The position numbers were made by a program, and so were the translations under genes. From a phage, in assembly GCA_024571205.1 (NCBI GenBank), contig GCA_024571205.1_4523.1: DNA of 64,000 nucleotides; one strand, given 5' to 3'. Positions 48,464 through 57,100 of this stretch are shown piece by piece (the first letter of the stretch is position 1; each line of letters opens with the position of its first letter). The notes below the pieces were generated by a model. It was not told the origin of the DNA and did not search any database. It was given only the letters and a program-made list of their open reading frames with translations.

Positions 48464-49978
48464 TTATAAATTAATTGTTTTCATTACATAGTTAAATTTC
48501 TCATCAGCGTAACGCTGGATACGATCAATACCGTGTTTTAACAAGTAATTAAGATGAGTATACTTCTTTTTAGTATTTAATGATTTAGGTTTTACACCTG
48601 CGTCATCGATGAGATCCCAAACTGTAGCAACAGCTTTAGAACCATGCTTACGAAGCACACGACCTACTGTTTGAAGTACGATAATTTTTGATTTAACACC
48701 ATGGGCAAAAATAACATGATGAAGATTCTTGACTGAAATACCGGTAGAGAATACTCCATATGATGCGACAATAATAATGCCTTTACCATTTTCTGCCATG
48801 ACTTTAAGCGCGTTACGTGTTTCAGTATCAACTTCACCTGATACGTAATAAACTTTTTCGTATCCAAGCTCTTTAATAGCTTCAAATATTTCTTTACCGT
48901 GTGTAACATGTTTAAACATTACAAAGGCGTTCTCGTCTTTCTTGGCTAATTTGACTGAAAGTTGAGCAATCCACTTTGTACGACGTTTTAGTCCGGTAAT
49001 AATTTTAACTTCTTCTTGGTATGTTTTACCTTTTAATTTGGTGGCGAATTCGTCTGGATAACGAAGGAAAATACTATTAATCTTAAGCTCAGTTACCTGT
49101 CCGTCTTCCATTAATTTAGACGTGCTAACAGGACGGAAGATTTCGCCGAACATACCTACGTACTGCATTACATTGGCTTTTCCGTCTCTTAATGAGCCAG
49201 ATAAACCGAATTTAAACATGCAATTATTTAATCCTGAGATGATTGAAGAAATACTTTTGCCTGTTGCTAAGTGGCATTCATCGTTCATCATCATACCGAA
49301 CTGAGAGAACCATTCTTTAGGCTGCTTAACTACCGTTTGCCATGTGCCAACAATAATTGGAGCGTCGTTTTTAGCTCTGTCTGCTTTATCAGCACCACCG
49401 CCAATTTTCTTAATCATCGAATGACTAAACAAGCGATAATCAACAAAATCATTAGCCATCTGGGTTGTCAATGCTGTTGTAGGGACGATAATGAGAATTT
49501 TACCTTCATAGTTCTCTAGATAATACCGAGATAAAAGTGCTTGGATTAGTGATTTACCTGCTGATGTCGGAAGGTTTAAAATTCGACGACGATTAACTAG
49601 TCCTTCATATACTGCATCTTTTTGATACCAATGTGGTTCGATTTTGGCGTTGCCCGAATAAATTTCTTGTTTAGAAAGCCACGCGTCAAAATCTTCCCTG
49701 GTAAGGTCTTCAGTCTCAAAGATTTTAGGGTCAATCCATATAGAATAACTCATATTGTTACAGAACTTTTTTATTTGTCCTACAAGACCATATGGTAACA
49801 AACGATTGTAATCTAAAAGTCGAATTCTACCATCCCATTGCCCATAGCGATATTTTGGGTTAAATTTATACCCGTCGGCTTCAAAGCTAAAAAAGTCACG
49901 AAGTTCGTAAAACGTACTTTCGTCGCATTCAATGCGAACGTGACTAAAATCATAAAAATGTACTTTAATGTCAGTCAT
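48464..49978 (-). CDS. uvsW: UvsW DNA/RNA helicase
   Basis: 504 aa, MTDIKVHFYDFSHVRIECDESTFYELRDFFSFEADGYKFNP..., Walker A region PTSAGKS and DECH box MMMNDECH; matches T4 UvsW. Confidence 0.93.
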   Translation of the reverse strand: MTDIKVHFYDFSHVRIECDESTFYELRDFFSFEADGYKFNPKYRYGQWDGRIRLLDYNRLLPYGLVGQIKKFCNNMSYSIWIDPKIFETEDLTREDFDAWLSKQEIYSGNAKIEPHWYQKDAVYEGLVNRRRILNLPTSAGKSLIQALLSRYYLENYEGKILIIVPTTALTTQMANDFVDYRLFSHSMIKKIGGGADKADRAKNDAPIIVGTWQTVVKQPKEWFSQFGMMMNDECHLATGKSISSIISGLNNCMFKFGLSGSLRDGKANVMQYVGMFGEIFRPVSTSKLMEDGQVTELKINSIFLRYPDEFATKLKGKTYQEEVKIITGLKRRTKWIAQLSVKLAKKDENAFVMFKHVTHGKEIFEAIKELGYEKVYYVSGEVDTETRNALKVMAENGKGIIIVASYGVFSTGISVKNLHHVIFAHGVKSKIIVLQTVGRVLRKHGSKAVATVWDLIDDAGVKPKSLNTKKKYTHLNYLLKHGIDRIQRYADEKFNYVMKTINL

Positions 49979-50028: not shown

Positions 50029-50697
50029 ATGATCGATAAAGACTATATTGAAGAGTTACGTGCTCTTTCCGATAAAAAGGAAGCCAAAGCTAAACTGTTC
50101 GAATATGCGAAACAATTTGGCATTAGTGTTAAGAAAACAAAATCATTCGATAATATTGTTGTTGATATCGAAGAAGCTCTTAACGCACTGGCTGATGAAC
50201 CATTACCTGAAACTGATGGATTATCTATCACCGATTTAATTACTGCCGCAGATGATGTGGACGGTGTTAATTTCACCAACGAAGAAGTTAAAGAAGAAGC
50301 TATTCTGTTGTTTGATTCTCCAACAGAACAAGTTGAAGTATTAGAAGTTGTCGAACAAGAAAAAGAATTCGACCATGATAAATTTGAAGAAGCAATTACT
50401 AAGGTTGTTGAATCTGAAAAAGAGCCTGAGACAGAGGTAAATAAAGAAGTAAAATTTGTTCTGCCTGAAAATTTTAGTCCTACACTCATTAAATTAGGCA
50501 AAGGTCCAGGATATGTTACTGTTCCTTGGTGGATTTATCAATGGATAGCCGAAACACCTGATTGGAAATCTCACCCAACGAGTTTTGTGCATGCTTCTGC
50601 TCACCAAACATTATTTAGCTTAATTTATTATATTAATCGCGATGGATCAGTTCTAATTCGTGAAACTCGTAATTCTTCTTTCGTAACATTAAAATAA
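50029..50697 (+). CDS. hypothetical protein; possibly Inh (prohead protease inhibitor) by position
   Basis: 222 aa with an acidic central region, located between uvsW and hoc where T4 carries inh. Identity not verified. Confidence 0.4.
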   Translation: MIDKDYIEELRALSDKKEAKAKLFEYAKQFGISVKKTKSFDNIVVDIEEALNALADEPLPETDGLSITDLITAADDVDGVNFTNEEVKEEAILLFDSPTEQVEVLEVVEQEKEFDHDKFEEAITKVVESEKEPETEVNKEVKFVLPENFSPTLIKLGKGPGYVTVPWWIYQWIAETPDWKSHPTSFVHASAHQTLFSLIYYINRDGSVLIRETRNSSFVTLK

Positions 50698-50706
50698 GGA
50701 TAACTT

Positions 50707-52122
50707 ATGGCATTCACTGTCACGTTATCTCCTTTAACTCCTACAGGGGTTATTGGAGGTTCACAAACATTCACTGCTACACCTGCAGGTGAAAGTCCAG
50801 ATGGTACTATTACATACGTCTGGACTGTAGATGATATAGCACAGGAGTCTACGGCTGCTACAATGGATTATACTCTTGCTTCTCCAGCAGGAACAAAAAA
50901 AATTAAAGTGGTTGCAACTAATACACTTTCCGCAGGAGATCCGGAAATAGCTGAAGCGTCAACAACTATCACTGTTAATAAGAAAGAAAATAATTCTACC
51001 GTCGCTGTTACTCCGGCTTCTCCGGCTGCAGTAGAAATTGGAACAGCAACAACATTCACTGCTAATGTAAGTAATCAACCTAGTGGTGCTGCTATTGCTT
51101 ATACATGGAAAGTTGACGGGGTCGCTGCTGATGGTCAAAAGCAATCAACCTTTGAATATACACCAACATCTGAAGGAACTAAGTCTATAACTTGCTCCGT
51201 CACAGTAACTGCAACTGATTACGTTGATAAAACAGTAGAATCATCAGCGGTTTCTTTGACTGTAAATAAAAAGGCTAATTCTTCAACACTAAAAATTACG
51301 CCTGAGTCTCCGACTACGGTCTTTGGTGTTCCTATTACTTTAACTGCAAATGTCTCTAGTGCACCCTCAGGTGCTACTACATCATTCCAGTGGTCAATGG
51401 ATGACAGTAATATTCCGGATGCAACTTCTGCTACATATAAATTCACTCCAACCGAGGTCGGAAGTAAAACTCTTAAATGCACTGTATCTGTTTCTGCAAC
51501 AAATTATGTTACAAAAGAAATTTCAGCAGAAGCAACAGTAGTAACTAATAATGCGTCATTTAATAGTGCCACCATTTCTTTATCTCCGCCATCAGTTAAT
51601 ACTACTGTTGGTGGAACTGCAACTTTAACAGCATCTGTTACTGGTGCTCCAGGTGATACTAATATTGTGTATTCTTGGAAGAAAGACAACGTAGCAGAAA
51701 GTAATTCTACCAATACTTACAGTATTGATACCTCCTCAGCTGGTACTCATACAATTAAAGTTGAAGCAGTATTAACTAAAGATAATTATACTCCAAAGAC
51801 AATTAGTTCAACCGCTGAAGTTGTTATTGCTGAACGGACTCCAATTGAACCAGAAGGTGAATTACCTTATGTTCATCCTCTTCCACACCGTACTTCAGCT
51901 TACATTTGGTGTGGTTGGTGGGTTATGGATGAAATCCAAAAAATGACTGAAGAAGGTAAAGATTGGAAAATCGACGATCCGGGTAGTAAGTACTACTTGC
52001 ATCGTTATACGCTTCAGAAGATGATGAAAGACTATCCAGAAGTTGATGTTCAAGAATCACGTAATGGATACATCATTCATAAAACTGCGCTAGAAACTGG
52101 TATCATTTATACATATCCATAA
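50707..52122 (+). CDS. hoc: Hoc, highly immunogenic outer capsid protein (four Ig-like repeats)
   Basis: 471 aa with four ~95-aa repeats (e.g. TVNKKENNSTVAVTPASP..., TVNKKANSSTLKITPESP...) and a C-terminal region (YIWCGWWVMDE...); T4 hoc position. Confidence 0.82.
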   Translation: MAFTVTLSPLTPTGVIGGSQTFTATPAGESPDGTITYVWTVDDIAQESTAATMDYTLASPAGTKKIKVVATNTLSAGDPEIAEASTTITVNKKENNSTVAVTPASPAAVEIGTATTFTANVSNQPSGAAIAYTWKVDGVAADGQKQSTFEYTPTSEGTKSITCSVTVTATDYVDKTVESSAVSLTVNKKANSSTLKITPESPTTVFGVPITLTANVSSAPSGATTSFQWSMDDSNIPDATSATYKFTPTEVGSKTLKCTVSVSATNYVTKEISAEATVVTNNASFNSATISLSPPSVNTTVGGTATLTASVTGAPGDTNIVYSWKKDNVAESNSTNTYSIDTSSAGTHTIKVEAVLTKDNYTPKTISSTAEVVIAERTPIEPEGELPYVHPLPHRTSAYIWCGWWVMDEIQKMTEEGKDWKIDDPGSKYYLHRYTLQKMMKDYPEVDVQESRNGYIIHKTALETGIIYTYP

Positions 52123-52126
52123 TCGT

Positions 52127-52148
52127 AAGGGGCTTCGGCCCCTTTCTT
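52127..52148 (+). terminator. rho-independent terminator after hoc
   Basis: GGGGC-TTCG-GCCCC hairpin followed by a T-rich tract. Confidence 0.55.
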
Positions 52149-52222
52149 CGTTTTAAAGCATATAAACCACAACTTGAGATTGATGTATATAATGGCACAA
52201 ACCAAATAATACTGGATTGATT

Positions 52223-52784: not shown

Positions 52785-53792
52785 ATGTTTAAGAAATACA
52801 GCAGTCTTGAAAACCACTACAACTCTAAGTTTATTGAAAAACTCTACACTAATGGTTTGACTACTGGTGTTTGGGTAGCACGTGAGAAAATCCATGGGAC
52901 CAACTTCTCGTTAATAATTGAACGTGACAACGTCACATGCGCCAAGCGCACAGGCCCTATTCTTCCAGCAGAAGATTTTTATGGTTATGAAATCGTACTC
53001 AAGAAGTATGATAAGGCTATTAAAGGTGTTCAAGAAGTCATGGACAGTATTTCAACTTCAGTGCCGGTGACATATCAAGTCTTTGGTGAATTCGCTGGTG
53101 GTGGAATTCAGAAAGGTGTTGACTACGGTGAAAAAGATTTCTATGTATTCGATATCATCATAAACACGGAAAGCGGTGATACTTATTACATGAGTGATTA
53201 CGAAATGCAAGATTTCTGTAATACGTTTGGTTTTAAAATGGCACCAATGCTTGGACGTGGAACATTTGATGCTCTTATCACGATTCAAAACGACCTTGAT
53301 TCCGTCTTAGCCGCTTATAACGCTACGGCATCGGAAGACCTTGTAGAAGCAAATAATTGCGTATTTGATGCTAATGTTATTGGTGATAATACCGCAGAAG
53401 GTTATGTTCTGAAGCCTTGTTTCCCTAAATGGCTGCCAAACGGTACTCGTGTAGCGATTAAGTGCAAGAACTCTAAATTCAGTGAAAAGAAAAAGTCTGA
53501 TAAGCCTATTAAAACTCAGGTTCCATTAACCGAAATTGACAAAAACTTGCTTGATGTTCTAGCTTGTTATGTTACATTAAATCGTGTTAACAATGTGATT
53601 TCTAAGATTGGGACAGTAACTCCGAAAGATTTTGGCAAAGTGATGGGATTGACTGTTCAAGATATTCTGGAAGAAACTTCTCGTGAAGGCATTGTATTAA
53701 CATCATCTGATAATCCGAATCTTGTTAAGAAAGAATTAGTCCGAATGGTGCAAGATGTTCTGCGTCCTGCATGGATTGAATTAGTATCATAA
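52785..53792 (+). CDS. rnlB: RNA ligase 2
   Basis: 335 aa, [48 protein letters not shown] (lysine motif KIHG), matches T4 Rnl2. Confidence 0.92.
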
Positions 53793-53794
53793 CG

Positions 53795-53825
53795 AAAAAA
53801 GGGGACCTTTACGGTCCCCTTTTTT
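53795..53825. terminator. bidirectional terminator between rnlB (+) and gene 24 (-)
   Basis: GGGGACC-TTTAC-GGTCCCC hairpin flanked by AAAAAA upstream and TTTTTT downstream. Confidence 0.65.
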
Positions 53826-55108
53826 CATTCATCTATAATAATTTTAGGCAATTTAACACCAAGTAAAACAGACAAGTCTGAACGTCCTGCCATTTTATCC
53901 ATGTCCCCGCCATCAATTATTCTCGCTTCTTTTTCGTCTTTTGCTACTGTGTAAGGATTTGCTGATAAAGCGTATCTAACCAATAAACCAATAGACGGTT
54001 GCAAGCTTTCTGGATCAACTACAACTTTAAATGCACCAACATGTTCAGGGTCATCTAAGTCGAGACCTTCTGTATACGGGGCATAGAAAATTGATCCAAC
54101 AATTTCTTTTTCACCGATATTTTCTACTACGCCAACGATCACATAATCTAATGGACTGTTAGTATCGCAATAAAGCGGTAAACCATTAGCTAAGAACCCG
54201 TAAGCATTTTGTGAAAGATACTTATCATCTTCTGGTTTATGTTTTAACCAACCTGAAGCAGCAAGAATAGCAGCTGCACGAGCTGAAGCTACACAAAACG
54301 TCGCAGTATAAGTTGACTCTTTTTGAATGTGTGATACCATTTCACACACCATTCGATATAACGAACGACCTGCTTCTGGAGCGGATGCATAGCTCAAGTC
54401 AATAAATCCGGTGTCAGTAATTCCAGTAACTTTATAACGTTTCGATACCGTAATTAAAGACTGAAGAATATCTTTATTAATTTCATCAGCCATTTCAGTA
54501 GCAAGCAAATCTTCTAAGAAGTTAGGGGCATCAAATCCATTCGCTTCCAAATCTTGCGCTAATTCAACCGTGAGACCGGTTTTAAGTTTACGAGATTTGA
54601 CTGAAGTTTGCCATTTATTAATTTGGAATCTTGCATCGGAAATTTCGCTACCGGAGCTTTCAAATTTGCTTGTCACCGCTGCATCTGAAAATAACCGTAC
54701 CTTTAAATGAACAACTGCAATCTGAAGAGCTAATTCTAGATCACTTTCTTGAATATCTGCAAATGGTGTATCTTCTAGCACTTTATAGACGATATTATTA
54801 TATTTGAAAAAATCGCCTTTATTTAGTGTGACTTTTGATTCTTCTGTGAGCTCGGTAATTTTTTCTCGGTCTACATATCCAGCTTCACCTGCATAAGTAG
54901 CACCAGTTTTAAACGTTAATTCGTTGTCTGGGTTAAGATATTTAATACCATAAAAAGCAGCAACAGGTTGATTAGTTCTTTGTGTTGCTACAATGTCAGA
55001 ATATATTAATTTAGTCGTAGCGCGAGTCAAAGCAACGAGATTTGGGCGACCGATTGAGTTGCTAGTAGACGTTGTAGATTCACGCAATAATTTTTGGATT
55101 TTACTCAT
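53825..55108 (-). CDS. 24: gp24 capsid vertex protein
   Basis: 427 aa, same length as T4 gp24; late promoter at 55136-55143. Confidence 0.9.
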   Translation of the reverse strand: MSKIQKLLRESTTSTSNSIGRPNLVALTRATTKLIYSDIVATQRTNQPVAAFYGIKYLNPDNELTFKTGATYAGEAGYVDREKITELTEESKVTLNKGDFFKYNNIVYKVLEDTPFADIQESDLELALQIAVVHLKVRLFSDAAVTSKFESSGSEISDARFQINKWQTSVKSRKLKTGLTVELAQDLEANGFDAPNFLEDLLATEMADEINKDILQSLITVSKRYKVTGITDTGFIDLSYASAPEAGRSLYRMVCEMVSHIQKESTYTATFCVASARAAAILAASGWLKHKPEDDKYLSQNAYGFLANGLPLYCDTNSPLDYVIVGVVENIGEKEIVGSIFYAPYTEGLDLDDPEHVGAFKVVVDPESLQPSIGLLVRYALSANPYTVAKDEKEARIIDGGDMDKMAGRSDLSVLLGVKLPKIIIDE

Positions 55109-55531: not shown

Positions 55532-57100
55532 TTAGATGCCTTTTACATATACACGGCGGAAGTAAGCGTTCTTACCAAGGCTGTTCAGGATAGACGGCAT
55601 ACCGGACTGGATGCGAGCACCTGGAGCCTGCAGGGAACTTTCAGCAAACGGGTTAACACCGATACCGTAACGAGTTTTAAAGCCCATTACCGGCTGGAAG
55701 TTCTTAGGATCGGAACCACGCAGTGGGGTAAGTGCAACGTAAGGAGCATAGTAGATACCTGCATCCATTTCGTTAGCGCCTTTGTAACCAACGGTGAAGT
55801 AATCCTGTTTAGCATACTGGTCGATGTATACGCGGTATTTACCACCAAGTACACCGGCAAATACAGACTTAGTAGTGTCGGTATTAAAACCGGAAGCCAG
55901 ACCCTGTGCAGCGTAAGAAATACCAGTATCAACTGAAGCCAGTACGTTAACTACGTTACGGGAAGCGATAATGAAGTTACCTTCACCACGACCGGTTTGA
56001 CGAGCAATTTCAACTGCTTCTTTATCAATCTGGAACAACAGAGATTTAAAGCTTTCACCGGCCCAACGAGCACCACGGATATCAATCGGGTCCTGGAAGT
56101 CAAATACACCAGCTTTAGAACCAGGAGTCAGGGTCATACCAGATTTACCGACCTGTGCTGAGTAGTTAATCCAATCAACAACTTCACGGTTGATTTCTAG
56201 CATAATTTCTGTAGCCAGAATACCGCTCAGTTCAGCATCAGCATCCATACCGTGTACTGCACGGAGGTCTTGTGCTAATTCGATAGAGTAAGCAGCTTTC
56301 AGCTGGCGAGATTTAGCTTCGATAACTTGTTTATCGATACGGAAGCCCATTTCATTCCATGGGTTATCGGTAGAACCGTTGAAACCTTCCTGGAGTTCAG
56401 CGATAGAAGTAGCCATACCTTCAGCGATTTCTACCAGTGCACCAGCTTCCATTTGTTTCTTAACTTCTGCATCTAATTTAGCTGCATCAGTTGCACCAGA
56501 ATCAAGTGTTACGACAGCAGAAGCTTGCAGATATACAGTACCAGTTTCTTGGAAGAAGTGAGTATAGATATCACCTACAACAGTAGTAGTGTCAGCAGCC
56601 AGAGCTGGGAATTTCTTAGCAGCACCCTGACCAGAGAACATCGCGTCTGGGGCATACATCGGATGGAAAGCTTCTTTAGCGCCAGCAGCGATAGGGTCTT
56701 TACCATATACTGCACGGAGAGCAAATACCTGACCGGTCGGGCTGTTCATAGGCTGAACACCACAAATATCAAAAGCGATCAGATTAGGAATAGCACGACG
56801 AACCATACCCATAACGGCCGGCCCAATTTGGGTTACTGCACCAGAGGTTTGACCTGCTGCGATGTTCTGAGCATTATAACCATGGTCACCACCAATTTCA
56901 GCTTCGGTCAAGAAAGAACCAAATGCCTGAGCGATTTTCTCGTCTTTATATTCAGGGGATACTTCGAAATCTTTTTCCTGGTTTTCGAAGATTTTAGCGA
57001 TAATAGCCTGCTTGCTATTAGCGATTTCCGGCAGGCCTTCACCTTCCAGCAGTTCTTTCCATTTGTCTACGAGCTGAGCTTTAGTTTTGATAGTAGTCAT
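55532..57100 (-). CDS. 23: gp23 major capsid protein
   Basis: 522 aa, MTTIKTKAQLVDKWKELLEGEGLPEIANSKQAIIAKIFENQEKDFEVSPEYKDEKIAQAFGSFLTEAEIGGDHGYNA matches T4 gp23. Confidence 0.95.
   Translation of the reverse strand: MTTIKTKAQLVDKWKELLEGEGLPEIANSKQAIIAKIFENQEKDFEVSPEYKDEKIAQAFGSFLTEAEIGGDHGYNAQNIAAGQTSGAVTQIGPAVMGMVRRAIPNLIAFDICGVQPMNSPTGQVFALRAVYGKDPIAAGAKEAFHPMYAPDAMFSGQGAAKKFPALAADTTTVVGDIYTHFFQETGTVYLQASAVVTLDSGATDAAKLDAEVKKQMEAGALVEIAEGMATSIAELQEGFNGSTDNPWNEMGFRIDKQVIEAKSRQLKAAYSIELAQDLRAVHGMDADAELSGILATEIMLEINREVVDWINYSAQVGKSGMTLTPGSKAGVFDFQDPIDIRGARWAGESFKSLLFQIDKEAVEIARQTGRGEGNFIIASRNVVNVLASVDTGISYAAQGLASGFNTDTTKSVFAGVLGGKYRVYIDQYAKQDYFTVGYKGANEMDAGIYYAPYVALTPLRGSDPKNFQPVMGFKTRYGIGVNPFAESSLQAPGARIQSGMPSILNSLGKNAYFRRVYVKGI

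Follow-up and report, generated by a model that had tools for sequence, protein, structure and literature searches.

An RB69-like hoc gene in a T-even phage: a Hoc protein with four predicted Ig-like domains and the possible origins of the extra one

Introduction

Is the gene that follows inh in a 64,000-nt stretch of phage DNA an ordinary hoc, does its product carry one Ig-like domain more than the Hoc protein of phage T4, and, if so, where might that domain have come from? These questions are raised by a locus of the stretch analysed here (NCBI GenBank assembly GCA_024571205.1, contig GCA_024571205.1_4523.1), referred to at its full length as the window, in which a first-pass annotation, made from the letters and a list of open reading frames, had recognised a Hoc with four tandem repeats of about 95 residues and a Trp-rich C-terminal region. 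It had also taken T4 Hoc to be shorter by about 95 residues and had proposed from this an additional Ig-like domain, whose presence could alter capsid display or binding.

In T4, Hoc forms a 180-Angstrom fibre as a monomer, in which three Ig-like domains are joined to a C-terminal alpha/beta domain; of the four domains in total only three are Ig-like, and the C-terminal one attaches at the centre of each gp23* hexamer, with an aromatic-rich contact surface to which Trp306 and Trp310 belong (Fokine et al. 2023, PMC10385173). Weak adherence to bacterial and mucosal surfaces has been proposed for its Ig domains, and the acidic protein promotes particle dispersion (PMC10385173). The Ig-like domains of described homologues number from 1 to 10, with great variability even among close relatives of T4 (Fokine et al. 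2023, PMC10385173); a variable number of Ig domains in Hoc is, in other words, already published. The four-Ig architecture is likewise already known, being that of the standard RB69-type allele, present in public genomes since 2003. An explicit Ig-domain count for RB69 Hoc was not found in the literature searched (a search that ran without two primary Hoc papers), and Majewska 2023 (PMC10580926) contains nothing on the number of Hoc domains. The reading defended here, to which we give a probability of roughly 95%, is that the gene is an ordinary hoc, that of a T-even phage of the RB69-like group (Mosigvirus), encoding a capsid-decoration fibre with four Ig domains, one more than that of T4.

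Identity and genomic context of the gene

The coding sequence (50707..52122, plus strand) starts with ATG and continues as an uninterrupted single ORF of 471 codons plus the stop codon, exactly as the first-pass annotation had delimited it. At the nucleotide level it shares 99.9% identity with the corresponding gene of the Escherichia phages CAU_ECP01 and PECP20 and 97.0% with the annotated hoc of RB69 (AY303349; Straboviridae, Tevenvirinae, Mosigvirus), and 460 of its 471 residues are shared with RB69 Hoc (AAP76093.1). The protein matches PHROG 1149, “Hoc-like head decoration”, with an E-value of 9e-138, and the T4 Hoc chain in the PDB (5vf3_Z, 376 aa) with an E-value of 1e-140, so that, together with the annotation in RB69, the identity proposed at first sight holds. 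Its computed pI of 4.80 lies within the range of about 4-5 expected of this acidic protein, next to the values of 4.72 and 4.74 listed for RB69 and T4 Hoc, respectively (Table S1 of PMC10385173).

The C-terminal region (51841..52119, plus strand; residues 379-471) is homologous to T4 residues ~281-376, which is the part of Hoc that contacts the capsid in T4. It is 95% identical to its T4 counterpart (88 of 91 residues from EPEGEL onward), it keeps the equivalents of T4 W306 and W310, it matches PHROG 21694 at an E-value of 2.5e-40, and it is Trp-rich, as had been noted from the letters, four of the eight Trp residues of the protein falling within the last 93 positions. Among all the results, no evidence was found against the identity of the gene as hoc.

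The surroundings are those typical of hoc. Upstream lie uvsW (48464..49978, minus strand) and inh (50029..50697, plus strand), whose stop codon at 50695-50697 is placed just 5' of hoc; downstream, two small ORFs with matches to 24.3 and 24.2 separate hoc from rnlB, the gene for RNA ligase 2 (52785..53792, plus strand), and the head genes follow on the minus strand, namely gp24 (53825..55108) and the major capsid protein gp23 (55532..57100), the latter being a full-length match to T4 gp23 (1105 bits). This order (uvsW, inh, hoc, 24.3, 24.2, rnlB, gp24, gp23) reproduces the T4/RB69 synteny. Within this neighbourhood, rnlB has 335 codons (1008 nt) in the window and in CAU_ECP01, vs 332 (999 nt) in RB69 as well as in L005, a 93-kb contig from Logan SRR17833564.

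Regarding the flanking signals, an AAGGA motif on the plus strand (50696..50700), located 6 nt 5' of the hoc ATG and overlapping the inh stop codon, is a putative Shine-Dalgarno site as read from the letters, and 5 nt past the hoc stop a GC-rich hairpin resembling an intrinsic terminator, AAGGGGCTTCGGCCCCTT, is followed by a T-rich tail (52127..52154, plus strand), at a place equivalent to that of a putative terminator annotated in the T4 record X14869. A scan for sigma-70 promoters yielded no more than chance (9 found vs 9.5 expected), and no exact copy of the T4 late-promoter core TATAAATA was found on the plus strand just 5' of inh or hoc. Over the whole window, that core occurs 20 times vs 7.4 expected, a count that none of 100 shuffles reached; 15 of these 20 copies are on the minus strand, and the copies are clustered ahead of the minus-strand head genes, from 55 to 64 kb.

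Four repeats and their predicted folds

The N-terminal part of the protein was cut at residues 94, 190, 286 and 378 into the units 1-94, 95-190, 191-286 and 287-378. These four units, of 92-96 aa each, align in register, with every pairwise alignment scoring z = 9 to 24.5 above shuffled controls, and a hidden Markov model built from the repeat unit recovers exactly four copies in the protein, which bears out the four repeats of about 95 residues that had been claimed. The motifs quoted for them fared less evenly: TVNKK.N.ST,.TP.SP and T.TA.VS..PSGA are exact in repeats 2 and 3, whereas repeats 1 and 4 carry them in degenerate form only. T.TA and W..D do occur in all four repeats, and the core positions T.TA, Y.W..D and G.K.I align across the whole set. 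At the DNA level, Tandem Repeats Finder and a direct-repeat search over 50600-52200 returned nothing beyond short chance matches, so the repetition of hoc is visible in the protein only.

Are all four units Ig-like folds, or could one of them be something else? Single Pfam models give some room for doubt, since PKD covers three stretches, and Ig_3 and I-set match just residues 290-360 (these models and PKD_4 all scoring above their gathering thresholds), a pattern that would also be expected if only three units were true Ig folds and the fourth repeat were a degenerate linker or a disordered spacer. Against this, AlphaFold2, run on a 37-sequence alignment, predicts each of the four blocks as a beta-sandwich of 6 to 7 strands (pLDDT 85-96). 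Domain 1 (50707..50988, plus strand; residues 1-94), with strands modelled over 4-91 at pLDDT 88-96, is the orthologue of T4 Hoc D1, with 60% identity; domain 2 (50989..51276, plus strand; residues 95-190), modelled over 98-187 with the same pLDDT of 88-96 and containing the top-scoring PKD stretch, is the orthologue of T4 Hoc D2, with 54%; the third block, hereafter Dx (51277..51564, plus strand; residues 191-286), is modelled over 194-281 with pLDDT 85-95; and domain 4 (51565..51840, plus strand; residues 287-378), modelled over 289-375 and carrying the Ig_3 and I-set matches, is the orthologue of T4 Hoc D3, with about 44%. The C-terminal domain was modelled poorly (pLDDT 30-60), probably because the alignment is invariant there, and the model was left unused for that part, whose presumed fold is taken from its sequence identity to the solved T4 domain.

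Searched with Foldseek, the model finds its best PDB matches in four-Ig fragments of other proteins, namely Dscam1 Ig1-4, ICAM-5 D1-D4, Sidekick-2 and axonin-1, with alignments of 410-440 columns and E-values of about 1e-13, and it also matches RB49 Hoc (3shs; 5e-11), a protein that was matched by sequence too. The RMSD (up to 54 Angstrom) and TM values of these alignments are poor because the inter-domain geometry differs, and therefore only their span and E-values are used here. The span of the Foldseek alignments, the four copies found by the unit model and the core positions shared by all repeats thus agree with AlphaFold2 on an N-terminal string of four Ig-like beta-sandwiches, and at the level of prediction they rule out a string of three folds plus a linker or spacer, which is very improbable.

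The extra domain relative to T4 Hoc

T4 Hoc has 376 residues, so that the stated excess of about 95 (471 vs 376 aa) proves correct, and its position can be given precisely. HMMER aligns the two proteins in two collinear blocks, residues 1-190 with T4 1-190 and residues 289-471 with T4 194-376, which leaves about 98 residues with no T4 counterpart; a global alignment places a matching gap. These residues correspond to Dx, which is located between the orthologues of T4 D2 and T4 D3. The prediction of one Ig-like domain more than T4 is in this way borne out, four here vs three there, and an equal count in T4 Hoc is not the case (PMC10385173).

Dx resembles D2 above all. It is 40% identical to D2 of the same protein (score 195, z 24.5) and 37% identical to T4 D2 (score 188), whereas D1 and the last Ig unit, whether of this protein or of T4 Hoc, give scores of 88-127 only, and against D1 and D4 of its own protein z is 9-14. 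Because it is closest to D2 and no DNA-level repeat remains, Dx is an old paralogue of the D2 type. Searches with tblastn give a sharply divided picture of its spread, with at least 95% identity in 31 phage records, less than 60% in all others and nothing between. Compared with RB69, each of the Ig domains, Dx among them, has a dN/dS of 0.07-0.25, and these values, which stem from very few substitutions (1-5 per domain), would fit Dx being a maintained domain.

Could the extra residues be of no biological standing at all? Misassembly is a familiar hazard of tandem repeats, and a collapsed or duplicated repeat, a fusion of two genes during annotation, or else a recent and unstable tandem duplication, might account for them; there are, moreover, phage records in which hoc is split (“Hoc-like head decoration (x2)”, “Hoc part 1 / part 2”). 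The deposited records speak firmly against such explanations: 31 cover at least 80% of hoc, 29 of them, independently deposited, contain the whole 1416-nt gene at 94.8-99.9% identity, the same number of 31 carry Dx at the high identity mentioned above, and the ORF is uninterrupted. A recent duplication is further rejected because 50600-52200 holds no DNA-level repeat, in line with the divergence of D2 and Dx. On these grounds an artefact or a recent duplication is refuted, with next to no probability left to it. As for the split genes themselves, hoc is annotated as two adjacent CDSs in NRG-P0074, a20, ACG-C40 and FriedrichMiescher, which suggests frameshifted or interrupted genes, or sequencing errors, in those records.

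Distribution and mosaic alleles

The domain counts of related proteins, whose comparison across T4-like phages had been proposed as a check, do vary. Among the best 120 protein clusters (P0001-P0120), there are length classes of 376, 471-472 and 567-570 aa, and domain dissection identifies them as the 3-, 4- and 5-Ig Hoc proteins of close T-even relatives; for instance, Shigella phage ESh33, a Tequatrovirus, has a four-Ig Hoc of 472 aa. An independent IMG/VR sample of 20 loci contains Hoc relatives with 1, 2, 3, 4 and at least 7 units, and in it four-Ig forms appear in two lineages (L008 and L010/L014) besides the RB69 type. The single-Ig form in this sample has 179 aa and the two-Ig forms have 279-282 aa, and on a 167-kb contig (IMG/VR UViG 2706796453) there is a relative of 1107 aa with at least seven detectable Ig units, whose C-terminal domain is 66% identical to that of the window protein.

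Behind these counts there is a modular pattern. The D2-type module is the unit that varies in copy number, with 1, 2 or 3 copies in T4-type alleles, and the Hoc alleles combine T4-type with RB69-type modules as mosaics, the joints falling at the conserved domain borders SLTVNKK / TTLAVTP. Thus P0002 (567 aa) consists of T4-type D1-D2 followed by RB69-type D2-Dx-D4, P0003 (379 aa) of a T4-D2-like unit followed by Dx-D4, P0006 (376 aa) of RB69-type D1-D2 followed by T4-type D3, and P0013 (472 aa) of T4 D1-D2, then RB69-type D2, then T4 D3. The five-Ig P0002 is encoded in L005 (4001-5704); on either side of the gene, this contig has a Mosigvirus backbone with about 96% identity to the window. In its 5' part the gene carries T4-type D1-D2 modules, which make it 288 nt longer than the window allele.

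Recombination may have touched the window allele as well. With respect to RB69, 20 of the 43 nucleotide differences in hoc fall in the last ~300 nt (51807-52122), dS being 0.37 in this 3' end vs 0.03-0.07 in the Ig part, and this segment matches several further T-even phage records (LF82-1 to LF82-8) at 97.1% identity. The excess of dS together with the LF82-type identity suggests that this stretch, in the capsid-binding domain, is a recombined patch, as judged from the substitution pattern.

Did Dx, then, arise in place, by duplication of D2 in the RB69 lineage, or did it arrive by exchange? One possible but doubtful scenario is that recombination swapped a two-domain cassette, composed of Dx and the RB69-type D4, from another Hoc allele for a T4-type D3, with no duplication in place in that lineage. 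Neither Dx nor the RB69-type D4 is found without the other (both are present in the window allele, P0001, P0002 and P0003), P0006 has RB69-type D1-D2 directly on a T4-type D3 with neither Dx nor the RB69-type D4, P0002 and P0013 are clear mosaics of both types, and no other Ig domain has diverged as far from its T4 orthologue as D4. These observations would agree with an imported cassette. Nonetheless, Dx is by its alignment scores a D2-type unit, and therefore a duplication of D2 must be placed somewhere in its ancestry, and no donor lineage with a closer Dx was found, all phage records outside the RB69 group lying below 60% identity. Since Dx and D4 are always paired, both an origin in place and the import of the two domains as a cassette are candidates.

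A broader proposal is that the length of the Hoc fibre is, in T-even phages, a trait that can be tuned and that recombines. Changes in module copy number and shuffling of modules are themselves seen among the alleles. That the D2-type cassette, in 1, 2 or 3 copies, would set 3-, 4- and 5-Ig fibres, that T4- and RB69-type modules would be exchanged between Tequatrovirus and Mosigvirus at the SLTVNKK / TTLAVTP borders, and that the process would be adaptive, with Dx as its earliest product to become fixed, retained for a distinct binding specificity, is as a whole a speculative and rather unlikely extension of that pattern.

Proposed working of the protein

What would such a protein do on the capsid? 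The capsid-binding domain is nearly unchanged with respect to T4, including W306 and W310, an aspartate (D341, in domain 4) is retained at the position of T4 D246, the pI is similarly acidic and gp23 is a full-length match, and because of this the protein is inferred to dock as T4 Hoc does and to have a function of the same type. By homology, the C-terminal alpha/beta domain would dock at the centre of each gp23* hexamer, one monomer each, and the protein would project from the capsid a string of four Ig-like beta-sandwiches; as is characteristic of Hoc in T4-like phages, it would be dispensable for infectivity. By analogy with T4, these domains might provide weak, reversible adhesion to bacterial or mucosal glycans, and the acidic surface might aid the dispersion of the particles; the literature on such binding, be it to mucin glycans or to the surface of bacteria, concerns T4 only (PMC10385173; PMC9271167). 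In proportion to the 180 Angstrom of T4 Hoc, a fourth Ig domain would lengthen the fibre by roughly 40-45 Angstrom and supply a further potential binding module. Docking, adhesion and the longer fibre are predictions carried over from T4 and RB49, and the number of Ig domains might, as the first-pass annotation proposed, affect display or binding.

Significance and comparison with known systems

As a discovery, the locus has little weight, given that it holds a known RB69-type hoc and that the variation in the number of Ig domains (1 to 10) is published. Its use is modest and lies in the documentation of the extra domain as an old paralogue of domain 2 and in the demonstration of 3-, 4- and 5-Ig mosaic alleles in close T-even relatives. 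This has some relevance for Hoc display platforms and for studies of mucus adherence, since capsids that are nearly identical in other respects differ in the length of the fibre and in the modules it contains.

The closest known system is RB69 Hoc, which shares with the window protein its length of 471 aa, the four Ig units plus C-terminal domain and the gene neighbourhood, and which differs from it by eleven substitutions (43 nucleotide differences in the gene). T4 Hoc (PDB 5vf3, 8t1x, 8t9r) has in common the acidic pI and the location between inh and 24.3, but it has three Ig-like domains instead of four, and the Ig domains that correspond are only 44-60% identical. The Hoc proteins with four Ig domains (472 aa) or five (567-570 aa) from Tequatrovirus and Mosigvirus-like phages (for example ESh33, vB_EcoM_G10400, UGKSEcP1/2 and P0002) also carry extra D2-type modules between D1 and the last Ig domain; in the T4-type alleles among them, however, these modules are 78-95% identical to T4 D2, in contrast to the 37-40% of Dx. 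At a greater distance, RB49 Hoc (PDB 3shs), the Hoc of Serratia phage Muldoon and pb10 of phage T5 are built on the same plan of Ig-like domains strung on a capsid-binding domain (PMC10385173, PMC5292684), with very low sequence identity and other domain counts: Muldoon Hoc has 10 Ig domains in 1174 aa, and T5 pb10 has one, set on a distinct capsid-binding domain of its own (PMC10385173, PMC5292684).
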